From a virus: 37,376 bases of DNA. How positions within the stretch are numbered: the first letter of the stretch is position 1; every line of letters begins with the position of its first letter. The notes under the pieces are model-generated. The model saw only the letters and a program-made list of their open reading frames with translations. It was not told the DNA's origin and ran no database searches. The translations under genes and the position numbers were made by a program. The DNA lies in UHGV virus genome UHGV-0029172; one strand, 5' to 3'. Positions 1 through 36,741 of this stretch are shown in pieces.

Positions 1-15
1 TCCTGTTTTCAAAGG

Positions 16-1284
16 TTATTGATTAAATGCGGCGTGTAAGGCATCCACACTACGTGCCGCTCGCAGCGTGCGTCCGGGGTTACTCTGGCTTGCCAACAGC
101 GTTTGTACCTTGCTGACAATATGCGCACCAATAGGAATTGCTGATGTCGCTGCCGGGGAGGGCGCATTGCAGGTGTGGATCGTGCGCGGGGTGGTGACAA
201 ACAGAAAATCGTCAATCAGCTTGCCGTCCGGCGATACCGCCTGCGCCCGCACACCGGCGGGCCAGGGCTGGAGATCGCTTAACGAAAGCCGGGGACAATA
301 CTTTTGCACCAGCCGCAGATAGCCGCTTTTGCACAGCGAGTTTTTCATCTCGCCCAGTCCTGAGCGTAGATGGTTTTGCAGCACCCGGCGAATCCCCGAC
401 GAGCCCAAAATTTCCAGCGTGTCGCTAAACGAGAAGTCGCGCTTGTGGTAGCCTTCGCGTTTAAAAGCCAGCACCGCGTTTGGCCCGACGGTCACGCTGC
501 CATCGATCATTCGGGTGAGATGCACGCCCAAAAATGGCATCGCGGGGTCGGGAATGGGGTAAATCAGGTGGTTAACAATCTGGTTATGCTCCGGCGCAAG
601 GCGGAAATACTCACCACGGAACGGGCAGATGATAAAGCCCGGTTCGAGTCCGAGCATTTTCACCAGCCGGTCAGCCATCAGCCCGGAACAGCTAATCAGC
701 GTCGATGCTTCATATTCGCCGCCCTGGCGGGTACGTATCACCACGCCGTTTTTATGCTCACTGAGGCCGCTGACTTCGGCGTTATAGATAATCTCGCCGC
801 CTCTGGCCTGGAAAATTTTTGCCATCGCCGCCGTTACTTCGCGGTAGCTGACAATGCCGCTGGACGGCACAAAAATACCGCCAAGCCCGGTGATATTCGG
901 TTCGCGCTCGCGCAGTTCATCGGCGTTTAACCACTCGCGCTCGATACCGTTTGCCGCCGTGCGTTCCCACAACGCGCGCATCCGTTCCATTTCGAGTTCA
1001 GAGGTGGCGACCAGCATCTTGCCGCAGTTGTCATAGCGAATGCCGTTTTGATCGCAAAAGGCTTTAGTGGCGCGGTTTCCCGCCAGGCAAAACTGTGCCT
1101 TCAGGCTACCGGGCGTGTAATAAACCCCGGCATGGATCACGCCGCTGTTGTGGCCCGTCTGGTGACAGGCCGGGCCGGACTCTTTTTCCAGCAACGCAAT
1201 GCGGGCGTCCGGATAGACATCAATCAGTTGCATGGCGGTCGACATGCCGATGATGCCGCCGCCAATAATCACAAAATCATACAT
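16..1284 (-). CDS. lhgO: L-2-hydroxyglutarate oxidase/dehydrogenase (FAD-dependent), LhgO/YgaF-like
   Basis: ORF 16..1350; start moved to in-frame ATG (1282-1284) giving MYDFVIIGGGIIG (FAD-binding GxGxxG motif), preceded by AAGGA RBS; 422 aa; directly downstream of csiD as in the E. coli csiD-lhgO-gabDTP operon (recalled). Confidence 0.85.
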   Translation of the reverse strand: MYDFVIIGGGIIGMSTAMQLIDVYPDARIALLEKESGPACHQTGHNSGVIHAGVYYTPGSLKAQFCLAGNRATKAFCDQNGIRYDNCGKMLVATSELEMERMRALWERTAANGIEREWLNADELREREPNITGLGGIFVPSSGIVSYREVTAAMAKIFQARGGEIIYNAEVSGLSEHKNGVVIRTRQGGEYEASTLISCSGLMADRLVKMLGLEPGFIICPFRGEYFRLAPEHNQIVNHLIYPIPDPAMPFLGVHLTRMIDGSVTVGPNAVLAFKREGYHKRDFSFSDTLEILGSSGIRRVLQNHLRSGLGEMKNSLCKSGYLRLVQKYCPRLSLSDLQPWPAGVRAQAVSPDGKLIDDFLFVTTPRTIHTCNAPSPAATSAIPIGAHIVSKVQTLLASQSNPGRTLRAARSVDALHAAFNQ

Positions 1285-1303
1285 CCGCTCAATTCCTTTG
1301 CGC

Positions 1304-2460
<1,157 letters not shown>

Positions 2461-2616
2461 GAAATGAATAACTAAAGCAACAGGTTAGGGGGAGTTAACA
2501 TTAGAGAACAGATTATCTGGTCGATAAAAAACAGTAAATGGCTTCACTGCAAAATGACCGTTAGTAAACTAAACATATTATCTGCCCCGTTTTATCGGGG
2601 CAGATATAACATTAAA

Positions 2617-4869
2617 TTATAAATAGAGATAGTTCGGCGGTTCTCCTGTTTTCCCTAAAAGAAGAGCGCTACGCCCAGGAATATTGATATTTAGAGTTCC
2701 GCCTCTAAGCGTAAATACTTTACCAGGGGGGATAATTTTTCGGGTATTATTAATAATAATGTTAACGCTATTACTCCCCATGTTTTTGTATATTCCAGGT
2801 TGCAATTTGTTAGGCCAGGTACCTTCAACTTCTTCGTTTCCTTTATTTATTATAACTAGTCCATCATGAGGAGAGTGATTAATGTTCACAGAATCCCCAC
2901 GACTAAAGGCCAGAACGTTTTTAGTTGCAGATACACCCTCAAATGCGCTCCATATTCCTGCTTTATCTATATATAATGCGTGGAATTCATTGTAGAGCTG
3001 CTGATAGGTAGAGCAACCTTTATTAAGCTACGCCTCACCGCCGACACGCGTGGACCCATCATAATTTTTAATTTCAGTCGTTGATTTTAATACTTGGCCA
3101 TCCCAGTAAACTAAAGGCCTGCTGAACGGCAGAGCGGCTATATATGCCATTGCTAATTGTTCATCTTGTTGATGGTTAAATAGAAAGTCATTGAAAAGAT
3201 TACCATTGTTAGGAAAATCGTGGTTAATGTTAATCAATATCCGTCTTTCTGATGGGATACTTGAGATTGTGGAACCCGGTTTTGATGCAAGGGTTTGAAG
3301 ATCTCCACCAAATGAAAAGGCTTTTATCGTTTTCATGAGCAATGAAAAATCAATGGCGCTTAAATCATCTCTTTCATAAAGCAGTGATGACATTTGTTGT
3401 TCATCCAACTGACAAGTTACCAGATATTCCATGTAATTCATAACGGCTTTTTTATGATATTTTGGGTTAAATAAGTTAGTATTGTGTAACCGCTCATTAT
3501 AATTTTTAAGCGGTGGGGTTATTGATCTTTCTATTTGTTCATGTTTTGAGTGTTTTGCCGCATCATAACGTAAACCTCGTACGCCATATTTTCGCATTTC
3601 ACGAACGTATTGATTTTGCAACATAATAACCTGGTCACTTTTGGGTGTTGTTTTAGGCATTCCATTTAAACGCTTTTCTTTTAATGCATGGAGGTTTTCC
3701 CATTCATCCTTAGAGATGTTATCTTTACTTGCTTCGAAGTCTTTTGCAGTGAGATGTATATCTTCTGGATGGATTTGTTTACGTTCTTTTGTTACTGGAT
3801 CTTTAATGAATGGAATCAAAACCTGACCTTGCTAATAGCCAGGGATACCACCTTCTATATCTTTACTGATCTTCGCTCGTATATCAGCAGAGGGATAATC
3901 CAGGTCATTTTTACCACTACCCCCAATTCCCATAAAGTTAAAGGTATAATCAGGAATGATATCGATACCAAATTTTTTAGCATCTTTAACCAATGCAATA
4001 AAATCCTGCAAATCTCCCATTGGATTATGGATGGTACAAAGATCTTCGGGTTGATAAGCATGAAACCAGTAACCCTTTTCTTCTTCGGGAGTTTCTGGTC
4101 CGTCGGCGCGGAAAGTTGTCACTGGAGGGATTTGTATATACCCATAATGGCAACGTGCAAATTCAGACATATTTTCTCTGATCTGCTGGTAGGTGGCATT
4201 AAAAGCATGAAGAATCGCTTCGCCAGGTTTTTTGGGGGTGATGATTTCACATTGTGATTTCTGAACAGCAGTAAGAGATTTACGCTCAAGTGTTTGCCGT
4301 AGATGTTCTAGATTGATTAATATTTTAAATGTTTCTTGCTGTCCGGAAGGTGACGTCACGTTAATATTATATACATCGGCTGCCAGCTCATAGTCAGGAA
4401 TGTTAATAGCATATGCAACATATTTATCTTTTGGGGAAGGTTTGTCAGATATAATGTGGGTGAAATGTTCAGCACGACCATACTGATAAACACCGCTGTT
4501 ATCACCTCTTTCAATCATTGTATCTCGTTGATAAACCTATGTTTTTCTTTCTCCTATCCTGTCTGGCGCTGTAATGCTACGCTGTGCTGCTTTATTCAAC
4601 TCTCGGTAAGTTGTATCTGGAGAAAGGGAAATTTTATAATCGTTTTTTAACAGATCATTAATAACTTTTTCTGCGTGAAAAGTTGATATAATTTCTCTGT
4701 CTTTTAATCCTTGAGGGTAAACTCCACAAGAATTAATAATATTTGTTATACAGTTTAGATATTCTAATGTATTTAATTTGGAATTTAGATCCCCGTCAGT
4801 AATGTTCCATGATAACAATGTGGGGTTGTCGATAGGTAAATTTCTGGATCCTGGTTTTATAGAAAACAT
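2617..4869 (-). pseudogene. ygaQ: ygaQ-like gene disrupted by three in-frame amber (TAG) codons (at 3028-3030, 3832-3834, 4537-4539)
   Basis: Four track ORFs (4537..4869, 3832..4518, 3028..3819, 2617..2889) all lie in the same minus-strand frame (coordinates congruent mod 3); no other stop seen between 2890 and 3027; E. coli K-12 ygaQ is a multi-fragment pseudogene at this position next to csiD (recalled). Confidence 0.7.
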
Positions 4870-5428
4870 AATAAAGTTCCTCTAATGGTAGAGTAATATG
4901 ATGTATACGGAAGCATAAAAATGTTTAATTGTTGTGAAAGTAATTGCAAACAGATGTCCTACTTTTATCCAATATTTATATGGAAAAGGATAATGCTTAA
5001 ATCTGTTTTATTAATTATCGATGTGGTCTGGAGAGGCAACTGTCAAAAATCGCTCATACGAAACTAATGATTAGCAGAATAAGATCTATGAAAGAATATA
5101 TTGCTATACGAAGTTTATTTTTATGGAGTGAAAAGTAACAGATATCATAATGATGCGAAAACTCTTCAGCTAATGTAATAAAGTTATATTATTAGATACA
5201 AAATCATTACAAAGTATCATTGAATCGATGATAACTATAGATAGTGCTAATTATTAACATTTGCTTGTTGACTGCGAGTATCGACTTTGCGAATGGAGGC
5301 GGTGTCGGGTTTTATGTCGCGTGTAATCACGACCCAAGGTGAATGGGAACGCATAAAAATCTGTTATTTACATCATATGATCATCATGTTTATTGCGTGG
5401 TTTATAAGTATTGTTATTGCACACTCAA

Positions 5429-5507
5429 GGCCCTTTAGCTCAGTGGTTAGAGCAGGCGACTCATAATCGCTTGGTCGCTGGTTCAAGTCCAGCAGGGGGG
5501 GGCACCA
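5429..5507 (+). tRNA. tRNA-Ile(CAU) (ileX/ileY-type) copy at the attL junction; 5' 65 nt canonical, 3' acceptor strand replaced by prophage-derived AGGGGGGGGCACCA
   Basis: GGCCCTTTAGCTCAGTGGTTAGAGCAGGCGACTCATAATCGCTTGGTCGCTGGTTCAAGTCCAGC read directly; D-, anticodon- (CAT at 5462-5464) and T-arms intact and near-identical to recalled E. coli tRNA-Ile2; 3' end does not pair with 5' GGCCCTT. Confidence 0.7.
5459..5494. repeat. attL core (36-bp direct repeat ACTCATAATCGCTTGGTCGCTGGTTCAAGTCCAGCA)
   Basis: Identical 36-mer at 5459-5494 and 36696-36731; sequence diverges on both sides. Confidence 0.85.
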
Positions 5508-5664: not shown

Positions 5665-5883
5665 TCAGAGCCACAATGGCCGCTGACCACCGACAGTCGG
5701 GTGCGGCGGTGCCGGGTCAATGACTCCCGGAGTAACAATAAAGCGCTCTATCGTTTCCATTGTCATAAACGTGCAACTACAGTTGATATTCTGGCACTGG
5801 TGGTAGCGCACTTTCGTATTTTCTGTTAGATAGCGGCTTGTTCTCGCATGTGCGGCATGATGGCACTTCGGACAATGAAACAT
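5665..5883 (-). CDS. B: late gene transcriptional activator, Ogr/B zinc-finger family
   Basis: ORF 5665..5916 begins with TTG; start moved to ATG giving MFHCPKCHHAAHARTSRY...CQNINCSCTF (C4 zinc finger), 72 aa like P2 Ogr/186 B (recalled). Confidence 0.85.
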   Translation of the reverse strand: MFHCPKCHHAAHARTSRYLTENTKVRYHQCQNINCSCTFMTMETIERFIVTPGVIDPAPPHPTVGGQRPLWL

Positions 5884-5950
5884 AACCCACCCCATTATTC
5901 TCAATTCGTGAAACAATGATAATCATCAATTCACTTTTTGTGAATGCATT

Positions 5951-7120
5951 TTATTCATCATCCGATTCCGCGCTGTACTCAACATCAGAGAGTTTAACCT
6001 CAAGCTCTAAGCCCGTCGTGAAGCCGCCACCGTTCAGATTGTGAGTCACCTTACTGATTAACCATGATTGCTCGTCTATGACGCGCTTAAAGCCTGACAC
6101 GCGCACCGGTACCTCAGGGAATAAATCAGCCCTGCCAAGCGCCAGCGTAATTGAAAACTCCGCAACGCCTCGCTGCAGCTTATCCCACTTAGCCTGAGCG
6201 GCGCGCATCGCCTGCGCCTTAGAAGCGTAGACAGTCGTCAGCGCCAGCACGTTATCGGCCTCGCCGGCCATATACTCACCCTCGCGCGCCTCCGGCTCTT
6301 TTTTGGCCTTTGTCTTTTTGCTGACCGGCTTTGCTTTCGGGTGCTCCAGTGCGCGCAGGTGTTTCTCTTTTGGCTTACGTTTCAGCGTTACTTTCTGCTT
6401 TTGCGGTTTCGGGTCTTTGGTGTGCAACCATTTTGCCGTTACGCCGGTATAAGCCCCACGGTCAGCAATGGCAAACTGGTGACGGTCGCCATCGCTGCGG
6501 GTCAGCGTCATTTGCGGGACGGGTTTACCGCTGGCCGTCATCGCACTACCGGCTTTCAGAAACAGGAGTTTCCCCGCTTTCACTGACACCGCTGCCCCAT
6601 TGCGGTCAGCCAGCCGGGTCAGAAATACGGCGTCGGACTCCTGCGACTGGTCGATATGCGGCACCGGTATTTTTTTCAGTGAATCCGCGACACTGGCCGT
6701 CAGTTTATTGCGCTTTGCAATGGTGCTGACCAGCTCACCGAGGGTGGTGTCGTGCCACGATTCTTCACGCCGTGAATTGAGCGTTCCGCGAAAGTCTGCA
6801 CTACGCGCCCGGATGGTCAGGGTATCAGGCGCGCCCCGATGCTCAATCTCATCGACCGTGAAATCGCCCTTATTCAGAAGCGCGGAACCCTGCCACCCAA
6901 GCCACAGCGTGAGCACCGCCCCGCGCAGGGGTAACTCGACTTTGCCGTCAGTGTCGTCGAGCTCAATGTCGAGCTGGTCAGCCTCAAAACCCCGATTGTC
7001 GGTCATGGTAAGAGAAATCAGCCGGTCGCTAAAATTGCTGGTAATGTCCTGGCTGTTCAGTGTCAGCATAAACGCCGGTGCAAGGCTGGTACCGGCATCA
7101 ATAGTCATACCCGTAATCAT
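5951..7120 (-). CDS. D: tail protein D (late control D family)
   Basis: 389-aa ORF, position and size as P2 gpD; ATGA overlap with U stop. Confidence 0.85.
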   Translation of the reverse strand: MITGMTIDAGTSLAPAFMLTLNSQDITSNFSDRLISLTMTDNRGFEADQLDIELDDTDGKVELPLRGAVLTLWLGWQGSALLNKGDFTVDEIEHRGAPDTLTIRARSADFRGTLNSRREESWHDTTLGELVSTIAKRNKLTASVADSLKKIPVPHIDQSQESDAVFLTRLADRNGAAVSVKAGKLLFLKAGSAMTASGKPVPQMTLTRSDGDRHQFAIADRGAYTGVTAKWLHTKDPKPQKQKVTLKRKPKEKHLRALEHPKAKPVSKKTKAKKEPEAREGEYMAGEADNVLALTTVYASKAQAMRAAQAKWDKLQRGVAEFSITLALGRADLFPEVPVRVSGFKRVIDEQSWLISKVTHNLNGGGFTTGLELEVKLSDVEYSAESDDE

Positions 7121-7614: not shown

Positions 7615-10056
7615 TCAGTCATGGCCCATACTGGCACGCTGACGCGCACGCTTTTCGCGCTCAATCTGTTCGAGCGTGTCGCGTAGCTGTCTGTCAAGCT
7701 GATGCCCCGGCGCAACACCTCCCGGCAGAGTGATGTTGTATTCGCTTTTGCTCTGGTCAATGTAAGAGCGCCCCGCCGGTGCGGTAACTGGCTGATAAGC
7801 CTGATAGCCGCCATATGTGTTGGTTGCCGGGATGTAGGAATTACCCTGCGTGGCGGCGTTGGTTTTGGCGGCAGTCTGGTCGAGGCTGTCCGATTCTTTG
7901 TTGATGATGCCGAGTTTTTCGAGAAGCCAGTCGACACCGCTGCGCAGCTTGTTAAAAACATTGAGCGGAGCCATCAAGGCAGAGGCCAGTGCCTGACCAA
8001 AAATAACGCCGACATTTTTGCAGCTATCAAGCGTCTCCTGCGTGGCCTTGACCGGTGCAATCAGGTCTTTAAACCATTGCCAGACGCCGCGCAGCTTCTC
8101 ACCGATGCCGTCAAAAATGGGTGCCAGTGGAGCGAACATTTCCCCGACCGGTGCAAAGGCGCTCATGATGCCCTCAATCACCCCCGAGAAAAATGCGCTG
8201 ATGGGCTCCCAATATTTGCGGATGAGTAGAGCCCCGGCCACAATCGCCGCACCGACGGCCACAATCGGCCAGGTAATCGCACCGAGCGCTGTCACAATGG
8301 CACTACCAGCGACAGTAAATACCGTACCCAACACGCCAGCAGCGGCGATAATGGCGTTAATCCCCATGACAACCGGCCACGCAACGAGACCAATGCCGCC
8401 GATGATACCAATCAGCGCCAGCGCGCCACCGGCGATGATGCCGATAGTTGTCGCCAGCCCTTTGTTTTTCTGGATCCAGCCGTTGAGCTTTAACACATAC
8501 TGCGTGGCGGTTTGGGTGAGTTTGCGCAGCGAGCCCTCTTGCTGGTCAAAAAGGTCGGTACCGACCGCCTCATATGCAGACTGAAACTCTTTAAAATCAC
8601 CGCCGAGGTTATCCTGCATAACCTTAACCAGTTCCTCGGTTTTGCCGTCTGACGCTTTCAGCGCGGCGGTTAGCTGGTCGAGCTTGCCGCTGGCCGCTGC
8701 AGCCATCAGCACATTAGCCGATGAGCTGGCTTCCTCGCCGAATATCGTTTTCATGTATTCGGCTTGCTGCCCCGTACCGAGATTGTTGCGCTTAAAGCTG
8801 GCCTGCATTTCTTTCAGGATGGTAAATATCGGGCGCGTATTGCCTTTGTTGTCTGAGGTTTTGACGCCCAGCTCTTTGAGGGCATCCCATGCCTTGCCGG
8901 TCGGAGCCTGTAGGCGACTTAATACTGCACGGCTCCCGGTACCGGCCATCGAGCCTGTGATTTTTGCATCATGCAGAGCACCCACTATTGCGGCGGTTTC
9001 TTCAATGCTGACACCTGCATTTTTTGCCACCGGCGCGGCATAGGTCATCGCATCACTGAGGCCGTCAAAGTCGGCGGCTGTTTTGTTCATCACCGTAGAC
9101 AGTACATCGCCAATATGCGAAACCTTGTCATTGGAAAGCTGGAACGCAGAGCGCATTCCCATCAGTAACGCGGCGTTTTCCTCCATTGTGCGACGGTTAG
9201 CAAGCGCCATATTCAGAGTGACTGGCGTTGTTGCCTGAATCGCAGCGGCATCACCACCACCTTTTGCGATAATAATCTGCGCACTGGCAGCATCGTCGGC
9301 AGAGGCGGCAGTATTGTCGCCGAGCTGGCGCGCCTGTTTGCGTAGCGCCTGCATTTCTGGCGACTGCTTATCGACTCCGAGCACAGCCTGCAGTTCGGAA
9401 TTTTTCTGCGCAAAGTCATAACCGGGCATCAGTAATTTAACCCCGGCCATCGTTCCCGCTGTCGCGATACCGACCCCGGCAGCACCGGCTGCGGCCATGT
9501 TACCGGCAAGCTCTTTACCTGATTTATATCGCTCTTTCACCCGGCTTAATTTCGCCTGCTGCGCACTGACGCGCGCCAGTGCCTCGCGCTGTCGATTAAG
9601 CTGCGCCGTCGTTTCGCTGATAGAGGTTTTGAGCCGACGCTCATCGGCAGACAGGGTGCGGGTATTAATACCGGCCTGCATCAGCTCGGAGCGCTGGCGC
9701 TGTACCGACGTTCTTAGGCTGTTGTATTTAGTCTGCAGCTCAGAGGCAGCACGCTTTGCCGCTTCGAGTGCCTGCGCCTGCGCGCGGGTCGGACTGGTGG
9801 TGTTTTTAAACTGCACGGCCAGTTCACCGGCCTCGCGTTTCGCTTTCTCAAGCGACTGACTGGTTACGGCCAGTTGCGCGCTTGCCTTACGAAAGCCATC
9901 GATTTTCGATGCCTGACCATTCAGGTCACGCAGCCCCTTTTGTGTGTCGCGAATATCCCCCGACAGGGATTTACTCGCGGTCTGGATAGATTTAAGCGGT
10001 CGGGTTGCCTGGTCTACCGCTTTCAGCAATACCTCAAGCCTCAAGTTATTACTCAT
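7615..10056 (-). CDS. T: tail tape measure protein
   Basis: 813-aa ORF, Ala/Gly-rich with coiled-coil and hydrophobic segments; ATG at 10054-10056 overlapped by E' stop. Confidence 0.9.
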   Translation of the reverse strand: MSNNLRLEVLLKAVDQATRPLKSIQTASKSLSGDIRDTQKGLRDLNGQASKIDGFRKASAQLAVTSQSLEKAKREAGELAVQFKNTTSPTRAQAQALEAAKRAASELQTKYNSLRTSVQRQRSELMQAGINTRTLSADERRLKTSISETTAQLNRQREALARVSAQQAKLSRVKERYKSGKELAGNMAAAGAAGVGIATAGTMAGVKLLMPGYDFAQKNSELQAVLGVDKQSPEMQALRKQARQLGDNTAASADDAASAQIIIAKGGGDAAAIQATTPVTLNMALANRRTMEENAALLMGMRSAFQLSNDKVSHIGDVLSTVMNKTAADFDGLSDAMTYAAPVAKNAGVSIEETAAIVGALHDAKITGSMAGTGSRAVLSRLQAPTGKAWDALKELGVKTSDNKGNTRPIFTILKEMQASFKRNNLGTGQQAEYMKTIFGEEASSSANVLMAAAASGKLDQLTAALKASDGKTEELVKVMQDNLGGDFKEFQSAYEAVGTDLFDQQEGSLRKLTQTATQYVLKLNGWIQKNKGLATTIGIIAGGALALIGIIGGIGLVAWPVVMGINAIIAAAGVLGTVFTVAGSAIVTALGAITWPIVAVGAAIVAGALLIRKYWEPISAFFSGVIEGIMSAFAPVGEMFAPLAPIFDGIGEKLRGVWQWFKDLIAPVKATQETLDSCKNVGVIFGQALASALMAPLNVFNKLRSGVDWLLEKLGIINKESDSLDQTAAKTNAATQGNSYIPATNTYGGYQAYQPVTAPAGRSYIDQSKSEYNITLPGGVAPGHQLDRQLRDTLEQIEREKRARQRASMGHD

Positions 10057-25329: not shown

Positions 25330-25554
25330 TCAGCCTTTAGATTTTTTGGGGTCATCTTTTCGCTGGTAAGTACGCTCTTCCTGAATCTTTCCGTCCTCAG
25401 TATGAATTTTTACTGAGCCAGTCTTAGTAGACATGTAATCCTGCATCTCTTTGATGACTTCAGCCTTAGTCGCTGCTGTCTTGCTTGGCCGTTCATTTCC
25501 TACCTTTTGAAACTTCCACTTATCACCATCTTTTGTAATGTGGTAGTTATCCAT
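25330..25554 (-). CDS. small basic hydrophilic protein of unknown function (possibly DUF2188-like)
   Basis: 74-aa ORF with strong GGAGG RBS 7 nt upstream of ATG; lies between cos and Q, a position with no gene in P2 (recalled); lower G+C than neighbours by eye. Confidence 0.6.
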   Translation of the reverse strand: MDNYHITKDGDKWKFQKVGNERPSKTAATKAEVIKEMQDYMSTKTGSVKIHTEDGKIQEERTYQRKDDPKKSKG

Positions 25555-25971: not shown

Positions 25972-26850
25972 CTAATTATCTATCTCCGAACGAAGCAAAC
26001 TTACGTGTTTAGTATCGACAGGTAACGGCTTCGGAGCATGGTTTAATCCTTGATAAGATACATACGCGCTTGCTATTGATGCGACTGCGCTTGCCACCGC
26101 GACGATTACAGAAAGGATAGTAGCTATGCGCATTGTTCTCTGACCGGATTTGTCATCACTATAGCGCTGTTCATCTTTGTTAAAATGGCTAAGGGTATTC
26201 ATCGCTTTCCCTACAGGTTTGTATCCAGCTTGTGATTCCGAAATATCACCATTTTCCACAAGTGAATCTAGACAAAGACGTAATTCTTTTTTCATTCTTT
26301 CATTATCATCATGGTGAATCCATAGCTTACCAGCCACATCATCCATAATTAAATATTGACTAAAAGGTGCCTCACCTTCTTGCTCGCGATAAATTCTAAC
26401 TATAGAGGCTAAGACCGCCATTGTATCTGTGATTTCTTTTTTCTGTTGACGATACAAATAACTTTCACGACTAAACTTATTATTTTGATAATCTGAATCT
26501 CGCCTAAATCTAAACTCTCGCAGCCACGTCAAATCATTGAGAGACTGAAACTTTAGCTCATGTGCGTGGTAATAATAAATACCTGAGAAAGATTCAGGAA
26601 CTAGTTCATCAGGAACAAGCTCTGAATCTATATTAAATCGACTTTCCTCAGAATCCCATCTCCTTGCGCGAATCACCCCATTAACAAATCTATCAAAAAG
26701 ATACTCACCACCATCACCAGCCTTGATATAAACAGAATACATATCATAATGGATTGCATTTTCATACATTAAACTAATGCGTCCGTTATCTGGAGTTCTT
26801 TTCTTTTCGAACTTTTTTAAATGCTTAATAATACTATTGCCTGCTAACAT
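25972..26850 (-). CDS. tail-anchored membrane protein of unknown function (C-terminal TM helix), cargo gene 2 of variable-region module
   Basis: ORF 25972..26952 (GTG start, no RBS); start placed at ATG 26848-26850 with AGGTGG RBS; C-terminal hydrophobic MRIATILSVIVAVASAVASIASAYVSY; AT-rich by eye. Confidence 0.6.
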   Translation of the reverse strand: MLAGNSIIKHLKKFEKKRTPDNGRISLMYENAIHYDMYSVYIKAGDGGEYLFDRFVNGVIRARRWDSEESRFNIDSELVPDELVPESFSGIYYYHAHELKFQSLNDLTWLREFRFRRDSDYQNNKFSRESYLYRQQKKEITDTMAVLASIVRIYREQEGEAPFSQYLIMDDVAGKLWIHHDDNERMKKELRLCLDSLVENGDISESQAGYKPVGKAMNTLSHFNKDEQRYSDDKSGQRTMRIATILSVIVAVASAVASIASAYVSYQGLNHAPKPLPVDTKHVSLLRSEIDN

Positions 26851-26969
26851 TAGAACCACCTGAATGTATTTAGCATTAAATAAAATCTTGCCTTTACTAG
26901 CGCCTCGCATTGCTCGTTGTTCAACCCTGCCAGCACTGAAAACAAGTTTCACCGCTGGCAGCGTTTATA

Positions 26970-27701
26970 TTAATTATCGAGTATTGAAACGACCTCACCC
27001 GTTCGCACATCTACACGCGCCGCTACGGTCTGTTTGACCACCGCACCATAAGCATTTGTGCCGCGAAACGTAGTTTTTACAATGGCATGTGGGTCTTTAT
27101 TCAAAATCAGATGATAGACCGTTGAGACGTGCTTATAAGAGGAATCATCATTCATGCTGGCTTTTATCTGCTTTTCTAACGGGCGATAAGAACCATCCCA
27201 ACCGCTAAAATTATCCTTAAATGCATCGAGATTGATTTTATCATTCAGCGATTTTGGATCCTTCTCGAAGTCGTTGAAACACCAACCCAACACATCACCG
27301 AGCTTTAACGCATCATCTTTAGTAAAAGTGTACTCACTCATACAGGCATAAAAAGCGTCAGCAGAGCTGGCCGGTACACTTTTGAAATCAACATAATCTT
27401 TAACGATATCGTGCCGGGTTTCTTTCGGCTCATTGCGATATTCTTTAAGAGTTTTATCAGCATACTCAAACGTTGGTGTAACCGGTGCCGCTTCAACCGC
27501 CGGTATGTCAGTTTTTGCTACAGGCTGACTTTTTTCAGTCGGCCATAAGATTGACCCAAGGACGCTCAGCGCCAGACAACCGCCGAAATAAACTGCACTG
27601 GAGCGTTTACGATTCGGCATCCGAACCAGCGACGGCTTGATGAGACCAACGATAAAAGCAATAAAGAGCGCCAGAGATAAAAATGCAATTACGGTATCCA
27701 T
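26970..27701 (-). CDS. membrane protein of unknown function (two N-terminal TM helices, about 190-aa C-terminal domain), cargo gene 1
   Basis: 243-aa ORF, ATG at 27699-27701 with AAGGA RBS; TM1 VIAFLSLALFIAFIVGLI, basic loop, TM2 VYFGGCLALSVLGSILW; AT-rich by eye. Confidence 0.65.
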   Translation of the reverse strand: MDTVIAFLSLALFIAFIVGLIKPSLVRMPNRKRSSAVYFGGCLALSVLGSILWPTEKSQPVAKTDIPAVEAAPVTPTFEYADKTLKEYRNEPKETRHDIVKDYVDFKSVPASSADAFYACMSEYTFTKDDALKLGDVLGWCFNDFEKDPKSLNDKINLDAFKDNFSGWDGSYRPLEKQIKASMNDDSSYKHVSTVYHLILNKDPHAIVKTTFRGTNAYGAVVKQTVAARVDVRTGEVVSILDN

Positions 27702-27783
27702 GATTTTCCTTTGTGTGTAATCCCCATAAAAAACAACCCCATGCTATCAAACATGAGGTCAAGGTTTGTACATTTTTCAGGAA

Positions 27784-28197
27784 CTAACGCCAGCTCTCAT
27801 CTTCCCATACTTCCTGAAGGATACTATCAAGCGCTTCGCGGTCTGAATCCTTATCGAACCCCATCAGCTCGACGCCGGTCATGGACCCCTTTTTAACAGT
27901 AACCCGCGTTGACGGGAAAACAGACTGTATTCTCCTAGTCAATTCGCATTGAAAAGCTTCAATTACCGGCTGGCCTATTTTTTGGTCTTTATCTAACGTG
28001 ATATTTACTTTCACATTGCCAACCTTTGCAAAAGTTTCATCTACAGGCGGCGCGGAAAAAACAACAGAAAAATTATTGTTTTTCATCAGGTTGCCCTGTG
28101 CTATCTCCGCTATAAGATTCAATGCGATTTCACGGTCTCTTTCCTGGCAAGCACCTTCAGCCGTAAGGCGCGCAATCATTTCGACCCGTTCAATCAT
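27784..28197 (-). CDS. tum: Tum-like SOS-inducible antirepressor with DinI-like C-terminal domain
   Basis: C-terminal ...ELTRRIQSVFPSTRVTVKKGSMTGVELMGF...ILQEVWEDESW resembles DinI (recalled); start set to first ATG downstream of the LexA box (ORF track start is GTG at 28266, which would contain the operator); start uncertain. Confidence 0.65.
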   Translation of the reverse strand: MIERVEMIARLTAEGACQERDREIALNLIAEIAQGNLMKNNNFSVVFSAPPVDETFAKVGNVKVNITLDKDQKIGQPVIEAFQCELTRRIQSVFPSTRVTVKKGSMTGVELMGFDKDSDREALDSILQEVWEDESWR

Positions 28198-28244
28198 AAC
28201 GTGCTCGTTTAGTTCTCTATCCACACAACCCCCACTACGAGATA

Positions 28245-28260
28245 CTGTATAAATACACAG
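28245..28260. promoter_or_regulatory. LexA (SOS) box CTGTATAAATACACAG
   Basis: Perfect CTGT-N8-ACAG palindrome read directly, about 50 bp upstream of the tum-like ATG. Confidence 0.75.
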
Positions 28261-28341
28261 TATCACGTATCGGTAAAAGGTGTGAAGAAAAAATCACGGT
28301 TAAATACACTGTATGTACATGATAAGGATGAATATTAACGA

Positions 28342-30570
28342 CTATATTTTCGTTGCCAGCTCCGCTAAAGCCGCGACACGACTGAGGATTTTCCTAGCTT
28401 TAGCCTGATGCGATGGCGCTGCGGAAAATAATTCGCCTTTTGCCGTTCCTCGCAGCCATTTGCCGTCAAAACAGCTTTTACCACCTGCCATCAGATGCAG
28501 GGCTTCTCCACGGCTGATGGTTACGCCGGTTGTCAGGTGTATCTCGTCGATGGTTTTCTCTATCGCGCCGTTTTGCTCATCCCTTCCGTGGATGAATTTT
28601 CTCCGTATCCCCAGCCTTTTCTTCCTTAGTCGATTTGTCAGCTCACGCCTTTCGCGTCGACTTAGAGGTTTTGATAAATCGTGTTCCGGTGGATCGCTTT
28701 CGCTTCCCGTACAGTTATTGACAGAACTCCGAGAGGGCGCAGGAGCGCCCTTAACGTCAACGGCCAAATCAACGGCACGCTTCGGCACAATTTTCCACTG
28801 CGTTAGCCGGGTTAAAATCGGGGTACCAGCACCGACAGCAGAATCGTACACGCCACGGATGCAGACGGTTTCCTCACCATACTGGTTAAACTCGGCGCGC
28901 GGTTCATACAGCGTGCGCACCTGCAAATCTTCGCGACGGACAAACGGGCCACCCTGCGCATTAACGTAACCAGCCCAGTCACCGGCGTCAGCGGCATCAT
29001 GGACGGCAGCAAATTCAACGCTCAGACCGTGCGCGGTCTCGGTATCGGCGAGACGACGCAATTCACGGTAGACCGTCACCGGCGCACCGCCGATAAACTG
29101 GAATTGACGGATGTGCCAGCGCGCCGCCCATGCTGATACAGCGGGGGCTGTCTCTTTCAGCAGCTCACCGCTTTCGTCATCGGTTTCACCATCAAGAGCA
29201 TAGCCGTCGATATTTTTCGAAATGTATTTAGCAACATAGCCGGTAGCGCTGCCTTTTTCCGGGTCAATGGCCTCGGCATGAAAGCGCGCTTTTTTGGCTT
29301 TATCGCTTCTCAGTTCGTGGCGGTCTTCCTCCCACGCATAATCACGGATGATGAGGCGCACGCGCTCGACGTCTTCCGGCAACATGAACATAAGCATGTG
29401 CCAGTGAGGCGTTCCGTCGTGATGAGGCTCGGCAACACGGATGCCGAAAATGCGGATTTCTTCCCGATGTAACTTGGCACGAATGCGCGCCCAAAGGCCG
29501 GTGAGATAACTCTGTGTGTCCGACGGGCTGGCTCCTTTCCATTTGGTGTTACGGTAACCCGCCTTAGTTGTGGCGTGATATTTTGACGGCGCGGTCAGGG
29601 TATAAAACTCACCGACATAACCGAGCTCATTGCAGATATTTTCAAACCCACGGATGCGGGTCATCAGCTCGCAGCGACGTATCGCAGGGTTAGCGACCGA
29701 GCCATCGTATTTTTCAATCAGGCTGATGCGGTTGCCGTCTTCGTCTTCGAGATCCAGCCCCTTGAGAAATTCACGCGTGCGGCGCTTCTGCTCGCGCCAG
29801 TCGGTCACGCAGTTTTTACTCGCGTAGACATGTCTTTTCTTGCTGACGTTTCCAGCGGCAATGTGCAGGTGTTCGCGCCATGCAGCCGCAATGCGACGCA
29901 GACGACCACGCCACCACACCTCGTTAAACATGCGGGTGATAGCCGGGGCAATTTCATCCTCGCCGACATATTTCTTTGTCACCCGCTCCCAATGTGGCGG
30001 GGTAACATTGAATTGCAGGGAGATAATACCTGCGCGCATATACCAGGTGTACAGCGTTTTAAGCTCGCTAAATCCGGTGTCATCAATGTCAGCCAGTTCA
30101 GCCAGTTCAGCACGAATGAAATTAGCGATATCAGCAGCCAGCAAGTCAATATCGGCGCGCGACATATCAGGGAGGCGGTTATATCTGGCAACCATATTAA
30201 CCATGCGTGACGCCAGATATTGCATAAGCTGGGTATCAAAATGACCACCAAAAACAGCGGTTGATACATTGCTGTTGATACCCGTGCACTCGTATTTTTT
30301 TGCGACCAGTTCAAGACGTGGCAATGCCTTTTTGCAGAAGCTGATTAAAAAGGCATTGGCTCGTTGACTGCCCTGATTTTGCTCCAGCACAGCAGCGGTG
30401 CGATAAACGTCAAAACGCACGCACTCGGGCTGGAGAGAAAGCACTTTTCTCGCATGTAGCAAAGCCGCAAACATACGGTCGCGGCGATGCTGTTGGTCAT
30501 AAGTAAGATATGGGCTGGCTATTGCCGACCGTGGAGCATTCCATGGGTATGCAAACGTATATTTCGTCAT
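28342..30570 (-). CDS. A: replication initiation protein A (rolling-circle nickase)
   Basis: 742-aa ORF at P2/186 gene A position; ATG 30568-30570 overlaps stop of upstream gene (ATGA). Confidence 0.85.
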   Translation of the reverse strand: MTKYTFAYPWNAPRSAIASPYLTYDQQHRRDRMFAALLHARKVLSLQPECVRFDVYRTAAVLEQNQGSQRANAFLISFCKKALPRLELVAKKYECTGINSNVSTAVFGGHFDTQLMQYLASRMVNMVARYNRLPDMSRADIDLLAADIANFIRAELAELADIDDTGFSELKTLYTWYMRAGIISLQFNVTPPHWERVTKKYVGEDEIAPAITRMFNEVWWRGRLRRIAAAWREHLHIAAGNVSKKRHVYASKNCVTDWREQKRRTREFLKGLDLEDEDGNRISLIEKYDGSVANPAIRRCELMTRIRGFENICNELGYVGEFYTLTAPSKYHATTKAGYRNTKWKGASPSDTQSYLTGLWARIRAKLHREEIRIFGIRVAEPHHDGTPHWHMLMFMLPEDVERVRLIIRDYAWEEDRHELRSDKAKKARFHAEAIDPEKGSATGYVAKYISKNIDGYALDGETDDESGELLKETAPAVSAWAARWHIRQFQFIGGAPVTVYRELRRLADTETAHGLSVEFAAVHDAADAGDWAGYVNAQGGPFVRREDLQVRTLYEPRAEFNQYGEETVCIRGVYDSAVGAGTPILTRLTQWKIVPKRAVDLAVDVKGAPAPSRSSVNNCTGSESDPPEHDLSKPLSRRERRELTNRLRKKRLGIRRKFIHGRDEQNGAIEKTIDEIHLTTGVTISRGEALHLMAGGKSCFDGKWLRGTAKGELFSAAPSHQAKARKILSRVAALAELATKI

Positions 30571-33509: not shown

Positions 33510-33630
33510 ATTGCATGATTCCTTATTTGAAAATTTCTGACAGTGATTGCCAAAGTTTTGCCGACGTTTGCCATCAACTGCCACCAACAATCGAATCCTA
33601 ATGCGATTATTCGCATTGGTCAACATGAGA
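33510..33630. promoter_or_regulatory. lysis-lysogeny switch region between divergent apl and cI
   Basis: About 120-bp gap between divergent starts; in 186 this holds face-to-face pR/pL and operators (established knowledge); hexamers not confidently resolved. Confidence 0.45.
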
Positions 33631-34212
33631 ATGCGATTTATGGACTTTGAAAGCCAAATATCAAACGAGGAAGTTTTAGACAGAATCTGTCAGGTCTACG
33701 GATTTACACAGAAAATCCAGCTCGCTAATCATTTCAATATCGCAGCCAGCACGCTGCAAAACCGCTATACGCGGGGCAACGTCTCCTATGATTTCGCTGC
33801 ATTCTGCGCCCTTGAGACTGGCGTCAATATCCAATGGATCCTGACTGGTAAAGGACCACAAAAATCAGACGAAAACTCAAAATCGTCTTACGAGCTCCAG
33901 TCGTTCACATTAAGTGAAGGCCGACTCACTAAAACTGGAGATTTGAATATCGACCCCGAGCTTTTCGAAAAGCCTTTGAAAAGTGCCATCTGCGTTAAAA
34001 GCGAGAGCAAAAGCTACATCGCTGAGAAAGATGCGCCTTTAGCTGACGGCCTCTGGATTGTTGATGTTGAGGGCGCAATCAGCCTCCGTGAGTTAACGGT
34101 TCTACCCGGTAAAAGGTTGCATGTAGCAGGTGGAAAGGTACCGTTTGAGTGCGGGATTGATGAGATAAAAACGATTGGCCGTGTAGTGGGTGTATACAGC
34201 GAGGTTAATTGA
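33631..34212 (+). CDS. cI: CI-like immunity repressor (186 type)
   Basis: ORF 33547..34212; conserved-looking N-terminus MDFESQISNEEVLDRICQVYGFTQKIQLANHF (HTH); several in-frame ATGs (33601, 33625, 33631, 33640), start uncertain; stop overlaps int ATG. Confidence 0.75.
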   Translation: MRFMDFESQISNEEVLDRICQVYGFTQKIQLANHFNIAASTLQNRYTRGNVSYDFAAFCALETGVNIQWILTGKGPQKSDENSKSSYELQSFTLSEGRLTKTGDLNIDPELFEKPLKSAICVKSESKSYIAEKDAPLADGLWIVDVEGAISLRELTVLPGKRLHVAGGKVPFECGIDEIKTIGRVVGVYSEVN

Positions 34213-35321: not shown

Positions 35322-35645
35322 TCAAACCTCATTGTATGCACCACATCCATTACAACGAATGACAATGTTATGAATATTAACTTTTGGTACCCCAATAACA
35401 AGTTGAGATTTACACCCCCCACATAGCAACGCTAATCCGACCTCATAACCTGTTATAGCAACGGTGCCCTCTCCTTGATAAATAAAAACAGTCCTTGTAT
35501 CCGGGTCCGGCTCAGGAATAACCTCTAGAGTTATCGTCTCCTTAATCTCCGGAACTTCAGGTCTCTTAATTTTTGGTTCATGGCACTCTTTGAAAAGTAA
35601 GCCAGACTCACAGGGGCAAAGTTCATTTGGATCAATCTTAGCCAT
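35322..35645 (-). CDS. small zinc-binding protein: N-terminal SEC-C-like motif (CPCESGLLFKECH) plus C-terminal CxxC...CxxC zinc ribbon
   Basis: 107-aa ORF, ATG 2 nt after the upstream gene stop (operon); cysteine motifs read directly; AT-rich. Confidence 0.6.
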   Translation of the reverse strand: MAKIDPNELCPCESGLLFKECHEPKIKRPEVPEIKETITLEVIPEPDPDTRTVFIYQGEGTVAITGYEVGLALLCGGCKSQLVIGVPKVNIHNIVIRCNGCGAYNEV

Positions 35646-35647
35646 AT

Positions 35648-36493
35648 TTACTCTCTCACAATGGACAATGGCAAATTTGGATCAATATACCGCCCGATAT
35701 CAGGAACATTCAATTTCATTCGAGTAAGCATAATTAGTAGATAAGTAAAAAAACGGCCAAAAGATTGGTCTTCCATACCCTCTTTAACTATACGTAAAAC
35801 AATCTCATCATTTTCCTCACTATTTACCTGTCGCTTATGCGCCGTTAAAACCAAACTAACAAACTCATCTGTATCTAGGAGTAAATCTTTTTCCCCTTTT
35901 GTTAGATTAACTTTTTCATAACGAAGCACACCTTTGCCAAGAACACATATTAGATTACAAAAATAATTCACATCATGTACAGCCTTGCTGTGCGCCATCC
36001 AATTTTCTTTTAGAGAATCCAGAGAATTACCAGAAATATTAAATCCAAAAACAATACCAAATGGCCTAGATGCCCTATGAACTGTTGCGTATTCTCTAGT
36101 AGCAATCACCCCTAAATCTCTCGGCGCTAGTTTTTTGAATGAGGTTATTTTATTGGCTGCATCATCAAACTCACTTTTTGATAGAGTTGATTTAACTTCG
36201 ATAATACCATATACCCCTTCAACAGGAAGGATTGATGTTTTCCCCGCATAAAGTACTGGGCAATTAACGGCATCATAAATTATGATATCAATAGCATGGG
36301 AGCGTAAACCTTCTTTTGTAATTACCTCTCCTTTGGTCACGCCATATCTTTTTGGCAAATGAGTTTTGAGAAAATCCATTAAAAACTCCTCTCGATTCTC
36401 ACCTTTATCGCCACTATGATGTATAAAACCGGATTCTTTGAATCGAGCCAACATTGTAGCTTCTATTGAATTAAATAATTGATTTAAATCCAT
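35648..36493 (-). CDS. putative PD-(D/E)xK nuclease-like protein, unknown family
   Basis: 281-aa ORF with GGAGG RBS; candidate nuclease core HAIDIIIYD...(about 25 aa)...GIIEVK (D...ExK spacing typical of restriction-endonuclease-like fold); assignment from motif only. Confidence 0.5.
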   Translation of the reverse strand: MDLNQLFNSIEATMLARFKESGFIHHSGDKGENREEFLMDFLKTHLPKRYGVTKGEVITKEGLRSHAIDIIIYDAVNCPVLYAGKTSILPVEGVYGIIEVKSTLSKSEFDDAANKITSFKKLAPRDLGVIATREYATVHRASRPFGIVFGFNISGNSLDSLKENWMAHSKAVHDVNYFCNLICVLGKGVLRYEKVNLTKGEKDLLLDTDEFVSLVLTAHKRQVNSEENDEIVLRIVKEGMEDQSFGRFFTYLLIMLTRMKLNVPDIGRYIDPNLPLSIVRE

Positions 36494-36695: not shown

Positions 36696-36741
36696 ACTCA
36701 TAATCGCTTGGTCGCTGGTTCAAGTCCAGCAAGGGCCACCA
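36696..36741 (+). repeat. attR: 36-bp core repeat plus native tRNA 3' end (T-arm, acceptor AAGGGCC, discriminator A, CCA)
   Basis: ACTCATAATCGCTTGGTCGCTGGTTCAAGTCCAGCAAGGGCCACCA; acceptor AAGGGCC is perfectly complementary to the 5' GGCCCTT at 5429-5435. Confidence 0.85.

Follow-up and report, generated by a model that had tools for sequence, protein, structure and literature searches.

The DNA analysed here, referred to below as the window, is the 37,376-nucleotide sequence of UHGV virus genome UHGV-0029172. On its minus strand lies tum (27784-28224, including the stop codon), which begins at a GTG codon and encodes a 146-aa protein assigned as the Tum antirepressor by homology to that of coliphage 186. 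Read along this strand, the upstream region has the layout TTCACA(28286-28281)-N18-TACTGTGTATTTATACAGTA(28262-28243)-TCTCGTAGTGGGGGTTGT-GTG(28224), that is, a -35 hexamer, a predicted LexA operator (SOS box) 18 nt upstream of tum, and the start codon, with a Shine–Dalgarno sequence visible in the alignments, GGGGG (28229-28233), placed 4 nt ahead of the GTG. Beyond tum on the same strand are a hairpin with a U-run (27725-27761), found by a terminator scan and aligning with the annotated partial terminator t95a of 186, and an orf97 homologue (26970-27701) encoding 243 aa, assigned by homology as the second gene of the SOS operon. The hairpin folds at -19 kcal/mol (z=-3.15), and the Orf97 product is 89% identical to that of 186 and matches phrog_3403 over its full length.

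The SOS box is the 20-mer TACTGTATAAATACACAGTA at 28243-28262, which reads TACTGTGTATTTATACAGTA on the coding strand and may also be written CTGTGTATTTATACAG; its core, CTGT-N8-ACAG, occupies 28245-28260. A preliminary description of this DNA had placed a LexA operator at that core, upstream of a DinI-like gene, and both the pattern search and a scan of shuffled sequences agree. One should be aware that the sole CTGT-N8-ACAG match in the 37-kb window, CTGTATAAATACACAG, carries no significance as a 16-mer alone, since 0.46 matches are expected and at least one was seen in 37 of 100 shuffles. The 20-mer agrees with the Escherichia coli LexA consensus TACTGTATATATATACAGTA at 18 of 20 positions; none of 100 shuffles came within three mismatches of this consensus, and by our own arithmetic approximately 6e-5 matches with two mismatches or fewer are expected per 37 kb. 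A search of the entire window for further SOS boxes, allowing up to three mismatches to the consensus, returned none. The operator had been called perfect, which holds for the invariant CTGT and ACAG tetranucleotides but not for the AT-rich spacer, where two positions depart from the consensus.

The promoter in front of tum resembles p95 of phage 186. Its -35 hexamer, TTCACA (28281-28286, minus strand), was picked up by a scan for sigma-70-like promoters, aligns with the annotated p95 -35, and is unchanged in all nine sequences compared. The -10 hexamer, TACTGT (28257-28262, minus strand), follows after an 18-nt spacer and was assigned by homology, the -10 signal of 186 (186 positions 29044-29049) aligning with this stretch; the promoter scan offered GATACT at 28259-28264 as an alternative, with a 16-nt spacer. 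Either choice overlaps the LexA box, and transcription would be expected to start near 28250, within the box. Judged from the sequence alone, therefore, the promoter directly in front of tum has its start site inside the box and a -10 that overlaps it. A promoter-like match on the plus strand (28319-28348) and an antisense ORF of 84 aa (27998-28252, plus strand) were rejected as unsupported and at chance level.

The reading frame called mechanically, 27784-28266, begins at GTG 28266, would encode 160 aa, and contains the operator; it had been argued on this ground that the true start must lie downstream, and indeed GTG 28224 aligns with the annotated start of 186 tum. Were the 160-aa protein the real product, the "LexA box" would simply be coding sequence. 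The frame is open from 28266, as is the equivalent frame upstream of tum in 186, but GTG 28266 sits between the -35 and the -10 without a Shine–Dalgarno sequence, at approximately 16 nt before the point where, going by the 186 annotation, the p95 transcript would begin. Because the 186 promoter feature ends at the equivalent of window position 28250, a p95 transcript would exclude 28266 altogether. The annotated start in 186 is the GTG equivalent to 28224, and when a collection of 15 billion proteins was searched, the 146-aa form was present and the 160-aa form was missing. We therefore consider a 160-aa product extremely improbable, and the longer ORF is best regarded as merely an upstream in-frame extension of tum.

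The arrangement was compared with that in eight relatives, namely phages 186, BIS20 (Salmonella), EtG (Erwinia), MDG94-186 (Yersinia), and PHB48 (Salmonella), and three E. coli prophages. The -35 hexamer, LexA box, and GTG are found in identical register in all eight, with CTGT and ACAG invariant. The window departs from its relatives in two minor respects: its box reads TACTGTGTATTT, in place of TACTGTATGTTT in the eight relatives, giving two substitutions in the box spacer relative to 186 and a half-site of CTGTGT rather than CTGTAT, and its Shine–Dalgarno sequence is GGGGG, as opposed to GGAGG in 186 and all other relatives. These changes in the half-site and the Shine–Dalgarno sequence could shift the level of expression, the affinity for LexA, or the threshold of induction. 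The same variant box and Shine–Dalgarno sequence occur, with identical DNA, in a genome of Scandinavium hiltneri, so the variant is inherited and not a sequencing error.

The Scandinavium sequence deserves a remark of its own. Locus 922-969 of S. hiltneri H11S7 corresponds to window 28222-28262, with the box, Shine–Dalgarno sequence, and start all exact, and it encodes an identical 146-aa Tum, whereas the surrounding 6 kb are only ~88% identical. This points to recent exchange of the tum module among 186-like prophages of different Enterobacteriaceae.

A further conserved element was noticed in the same alignments. A 31-bp block at 28302-28332, TTCATCC(T/A)TATCATG(T/C)ACATACAGTGTATTT, follows closely on the gene A stop codon, at 50-80 bp ahead of the p95 start. 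It hardly varies among the nine phages and prophages compared, while its flanks do, and it contains the short palindromes ATGTACAT and ATACAGTGTAT. Two explanations for this block were rejected: as a terminator of the gene A transcript, it folds no better than shuffled sequences (z=-1.06), and as a second LexA box, it is without the CTGT-N8-ACAG spacing.

When positions 27400-28700 were searched by megablast against 50,697 phage records, coliphage 186 was the top match, with 100% coverage and 88% identity. The collinear alignment of 1301 bp spans the end of gene A, p95, the LexA site, tum, t95a, and orf97. In the 186 record (GenBank U32222), p95 is annotated with "SOS-dependent transcription of SOS operon" and a "protein_bind LexA" feature overlaps the -10; tum carries the remark "expression repressed by LexA; inhibits CI DNA binding," and three products from internal start codons of tum are listed, which "modulate SOS induction." According to PMC7708051, induction of phage 186 runs through p95, which LexA controls, and Tum, the anti-CI factor, and PMC3121763 describes Tum as binding the repressor and blocking operator binding; for the SOS operon itself, these papers cite Lamont 1989, Brumby 1996, and Shearwin 1998.

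The window and 186 share the order gene A, p95 with its LexA box, tum, partial terminator, orf97, and cos, so that tum stands between replication gene A and orf97/cos of a 186-like genome; they also share the GTG start, the internal start codons, the tRNA used as attB, and a 19-mer of cos. They differ in the immunity class of CI and in the pR operators, in the box and Shine–Dalgarno positions given above, in the replacement of terminator t95b by a 973-bp insertion, and in the non-essential early genes and the lysis genes. The locus is an ordinary, intact copy of the textbook 186 SOS operon and, as such, is already known; tum and orf97 are routinely annotated in P2-like prophages.

The tum product is identical to 186 Tum at 139 of 146 residues (95%) and matches PHROG 189 over aa 1-146 (E=1.6e-79). 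Since the identity to the founding member of the family is this high, membership can be regarded as settled, and the term "Tum-like" used in the preliminary description was an understatement: at 88% DNA and 95% protein identity, the locus is orthologous to 186 p95-tum. Annotation pipelines present it differently. The exact 146-aa sequence is found at NCBI as WP_135562434.1, "MULTISPECIES: DinI family protein [Enterobacteriaceae]."

This name reflects one of two modules fused in a single full-length Tum homologue. The N-terminal module (aa 1-~66; 28027-28224, minus strand) matches phrog_1993 (aa 1-63), phrog_37919, and phrog_8554, whose profiles are 61-66 positions long and so represent stand-alone N-domain proteins. 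These stand-alone matches, from which the antirepressor part is placed here, fit the published view of an antirepressor module fused to a DinI module; in that account, the antirepressor activity resides in the N-half of Tum, and in Fels-2 and PSP3 the two halves are separated by a stop codon (PMC3121763). The C-terminal module (aa 71-146; 27787-28014, minus strand) is DinI-like, as had been proposed from its sequence. It matches the Pfam DinI family (PF06183) at aa 87-145 with E=2.2e-17 and 63.5 bits against a cutoff of 24.2, and the structure of E. coli DinI (PDB 1ghh) aligns to aa 72-142 with E=2.7e-6, which together establish a DinI-like domain. The module coincides with the internal 186 product Tum95.5, which starts at a GTG at codon 71, and the internal starts M10 (28197), M47 (28086), and V71 (28014) are all conserved with 186. 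An AlphaFold2 model built from the single Tum sequence had a mean pLDDT of 48.6, too poor for a fold search; its two N-terminal helices, linker, and beta-alpha-beta-beta-alpha arrangement are loosely consistent with two modules. PADLOC returned no match for either Tum or Orf97.

Could the protein be mainly a DinI-type modulator of RecA filaments, with no antirepressor role? The Pfam and 1ghh matches, the PGAP and PHROG names ("DinI family protein," "RecA filament binding protein DinI"), and the SOS-modulating role that the 186 record gives to truncated Tum products all lean that way. The DinI similarity, however, is confined to aa 71-146, and the NCBIfam DinI equivalog NF007893 scores 44.3 bits at aa 72-142, far under its cutoff of 111 bits. 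Conservation with 186 Tum, a protein for which antirepressor activity has been established experimentally, reaches 95% in the 70-aa N-terminal extension, and the stand-alone N-half in PSP3 is reported to carry this activity (PMC3121763). The two roles are, moreover, not exclusive. We regard a purely DinI-type function as very unlikely and continue to treat the protein as an antirepressor with a DinI-like domain.

There are several known systems against which this locus can be set. Fels-2 (Salmonella) and PSP3 are LexA-controlled relatives of 186 with the identical two modules, separated there by the stop codon, whereas the window Tum is fused like that of 186. E. coli DinI is homologous to the C-terminal 75 aa of Tum, and both genes are LexA-regulated; DinI differs in being a stand-alone protein of 81 aa that acts on RecA filaments and lacks the N-terminal antirepressor module. 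The Gifsy antirepressors GfoA and GftA and AntC of N15 follow the same logic, a small antirepressor kept off by LexA acting through binding to a phage repressor that is non-cleavable (PMC3121763), but these proteins and their repressor families are unrelated to Tum and CI. A natural P2-like prophage of E. coli HS, DuoHS, behaves on induction as is predicted for the window prophage: in-frame deletion of its tum, or a lexA(Ind-) background, abolishes mitomycin C induction and lysis, and the activity of an SOS reporter is not altered by the tum deletion (PMC12055606).

Full-length tum of the 186 type is uncommon in E. coli, being found in five of 5,426 complete genomes, with ~37 more holding the N-terminal half only, and is widespread in phages of Klebsiella, Enterobacter, Salmonella, and Yersinia. 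In these ~37 genomes and in the E. coli SCEC020023 prophage (locus 7997-8197), the N-terminal half of tum stands behind an intact LexA box, and an acyltransferase gene takes the place of the DinI half and orf97. The researcher should note that PGAP flags such genes as an incomplete "DinI family protein"; they resemble the split tum of Fels-2 and PSP3.

The presumed target of Tum is encoded by cI, a 186-family immunity repressor gene at 33640-34212 on the plus strand (its start is uncertain, with ATG 33625 as an alternative). The product contains the Pfam domains Phage_CI_repr (PF07022) and Phage_CI_C (PF16452), which places it among the CI repressors of this type. It is 63% identical to 186 CI, and no relationship to 186 is seen in the pR operator region; from these two observations, we assign the window CI to a different immunity class. 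The same CI is found in the E. coli G47-1 prophage (100% identical) and in Erwinia phage EtG (95%), and in both, this CI class is paired with a Tum that is 95% identical. EtG is a viable phage, free virions of which were obtained from a plant infected by its lysogenic host (PMC5824000). Across the panel, three CI classes with a mutual identity of ~63% each occur alongside Tums that share at least 90% identity, and within CI the N-domain scaffold and the last ~60 residues account for most of the conservation. We infer from these pairings and this pattern of conservation that Tum contacts conserved surfaces of CI and that the Tum-CI pair of the window would work.

The surroundings of cI are themselves of note. 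Between 33246 and 35225, there are sharp mosaic boundaries, the 63% identical cI being found between Int, Apl, and CII at 98-100%, a pattern that suggests exchange of nothing but the immunity repressor and the pR operators. Identity to 186 is 92% in the pB region (5880-5960), where both annotated 186 CI sites are located, and the pR region (33560-33640) is unrelated, as fits a CI at 63%; either the window CI still recognizes pB-type sites of 186, or pB is not repressed by CI.

On the left, the flank of the prophage (1-5400) matches E. coli chromosomes with 100% identity and includes glaH/csiD, lhgO, and a ygaQ-like gene; a canonical LexA is therefore to be expected in the host. A tRNA with a CAT anticodon (5430-5501), beyond which an Rfam scan of the window found nothing, contains a 36-bp direct repeat at 5459-5494 that is shared with 36696-36731. 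Because it stands beside glaH/csiD-lhgO, this tRNA was taken as ileY, the attB named in the 186 record, and the geometry of the att sites matches the 186 attP/attB annotation.

When the proteins of 186 were searched by tblastn, most structural genes were found to be full-length and 80-98% identical, with B at 97%. Identity falls to 66% in tail protein Orf38, and in the tail fibre K only the N-terminal third can be matched (52%). For the 186 holin, endolysin, and tail-fibre C-terminus, the window has non-186 replacements, and it lacks the 248-aa W gene. Those non-essential early genes with a homologue are 74-84% identical to 186, and no homologue of 186 dhr, orf81, orf84, or orf69 was detected in the window. 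Int (98%), Apl (100%), and CII (98%) are close to identical, and the 19-mer of 186 cos is present unchanged at 25799-25781. By this gene content, the window holds a structurally complete 186-like (Eganvirus) prophage of E. coli, ~31 kb in length.

We consider it very probable that the locus is the SOS operon of this prophage, integrated at the tRNA gene that serves 186 as attB and induced along the route LexA-p95-Tum-CI. The box, the promoter geometry, the orthology to 186, the start codon, the 186-family CI, and the complete prophage with its att repeats are read from the DNA. In a lysogen, LexA of the host, seated on the box at 28243-28262, would block transcription of tum-orf97, as the box extends over the start site of the p95-type promoter and into its -10. 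Upon DNA damage, activated RecA would bring about self-cleavage of LexA and p95 would fire, with translation from GTG 28224 expected to yield the 146-aa Tum. The N-terminal module of Tum would then bind CI reversibly and keep it off its operators, so that pR would be derepressed for apl, cII, and replication gene A, followed by the late genes through B, and the prophage would be expected to excise and grow lytically. The DinI-like C-terminal module may modulate the response, as would, probably, the shorter products of the conserved internal starts. For LexA binding, SOS-dependent transcription, Tum-CI binding, and inducibility, this scheme draws on knowledge of phage 186.

P2-type non-inducible immunity is not what the window encodes; it has a repressor of the 186 CI type and a LexA-boxed tum. 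That the prophage should, unlike P2, be SOS-inducible can be soundly predicted from its homology to 186, and the prediction is reasonable because CI is of the 186 family and not a P2-type C, and because the structural genes, int, apl, and att repeats are intact.

Caution is advised in equating an intact module with the release of phage. Salmonella ST313 prophage BTP5 possesses homologues of tum and orf97 and no obvious defect, yet gave no plaques after mitomycin C (PMC5322425), so the tum module alone is no guarantee of productive induction. The window prophage might similarly carry an intact, SOS-regulated module without being productively inducible, either because Tum fails on the divergent CI, only 63% identical to that of 186, or because of another defect in lysis, the tail fibre, or an unseen point defect; the SOS-induced gene would then be expressed without phage release. 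The replacement of the lysis genes and fibre tip relative to 186 and the weakened Shine–Dalgarno sequence would be in keeping with this outcome. Against it, the pairing of Tums that are at least 90% identical with three CI classes argues for conserved contact surfaces on CI, and EtG, with the same CI class and a 95% identical Tum, was recovered as free virions from an infected plant. The structural homologues, furthermore, are full-length except for the tail fibre, and int, apl, cos, and the att repeats are intact. We consider a non-productive prophage unlikely, and productive induction by way of Tum remains the reading that we prefer.

For annotation purposes, we recommend that this gene be recorded as tum (146 aa, LexA-controlled, starting at GTG 28224), and neither as a "DinI family protein" nor as a 160-aa ORF. 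The prophage is best marked as probably inducible by the SOS response, including by antibiotics that damage DNA, which matters for the release of phage and for horizontal transfer out of this E. coli strain. The locus adds no biology beyond the paradigm of phage 186.

The region between orf97 and cos differs from that of 186. A 973-bp insertion (26896-25924) replaces 88 bp of 186 that hold terminator t95b, and within it lies a cargo ORF (25972-26952) on the same minus strand as tum and orf97, with a probable ATG near 26850. The ORF matches phrog_7611, a family of unknown function, with E=1e-124, and the PHROG match suggests a product of ~290 aa. In our reading, there is a hydrophobic stretch near its C-terminus, which may be a membrane anchor. 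A tblastn search against the 50,697 phage records gave no match to this ORF, and PADLOC gave nothing of note. The gap between orf97 and the cargo ORF contains only a weak hairpin; the cargo ORF may for this reason be co-transcribed from LexA-controlled p95.

Two modest proposals are put forward, tentatively and with slightly less than even confidence, namely that Tum is an antirepressor acting independently of CI class and that the cargo ORF of the insertion has been recruited into the LexA-controlled operon. Such a Tum may recognize the conserved scaffold of CI or its C-terminal 60 aa. If it is class-independent, Tum could cross-induce heteroimmune 186-like prophages in trans, in the manner of the Gifsy antirepressors.

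Other cargo is seen at the same and neighbouring positions. In relatives, the slot between orf97 and cos is occupied by an acyltransferase gene (E. coli SCEC020023) or by a pair of genes encoding an HTH protein and a reverse transcriptase (QEC11-421). Between cos and the portal gene of the window there is an ORF of 74 aa (25330-25554, minus strand), absent from 186 and followed by a terminator-like hairpin. Elsewhere in the prophage, two cargo genes (35322-36493, minus strand) lie between int and the att repeat, replacing 186 orf69. The first encodes a 281-aa DUF6602 protein with a PD-(D/E)xK/NucC-like nuclease domain (PADLOC PD_DExK, E=1.6e-40; NucC-type effector, E=7e-32), and the second, a 107-aa SEC-C-motif protein. 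The same pair is found at this position in the E. coli G47-1 prophage and is a candidate for anti-phage defence cargo.
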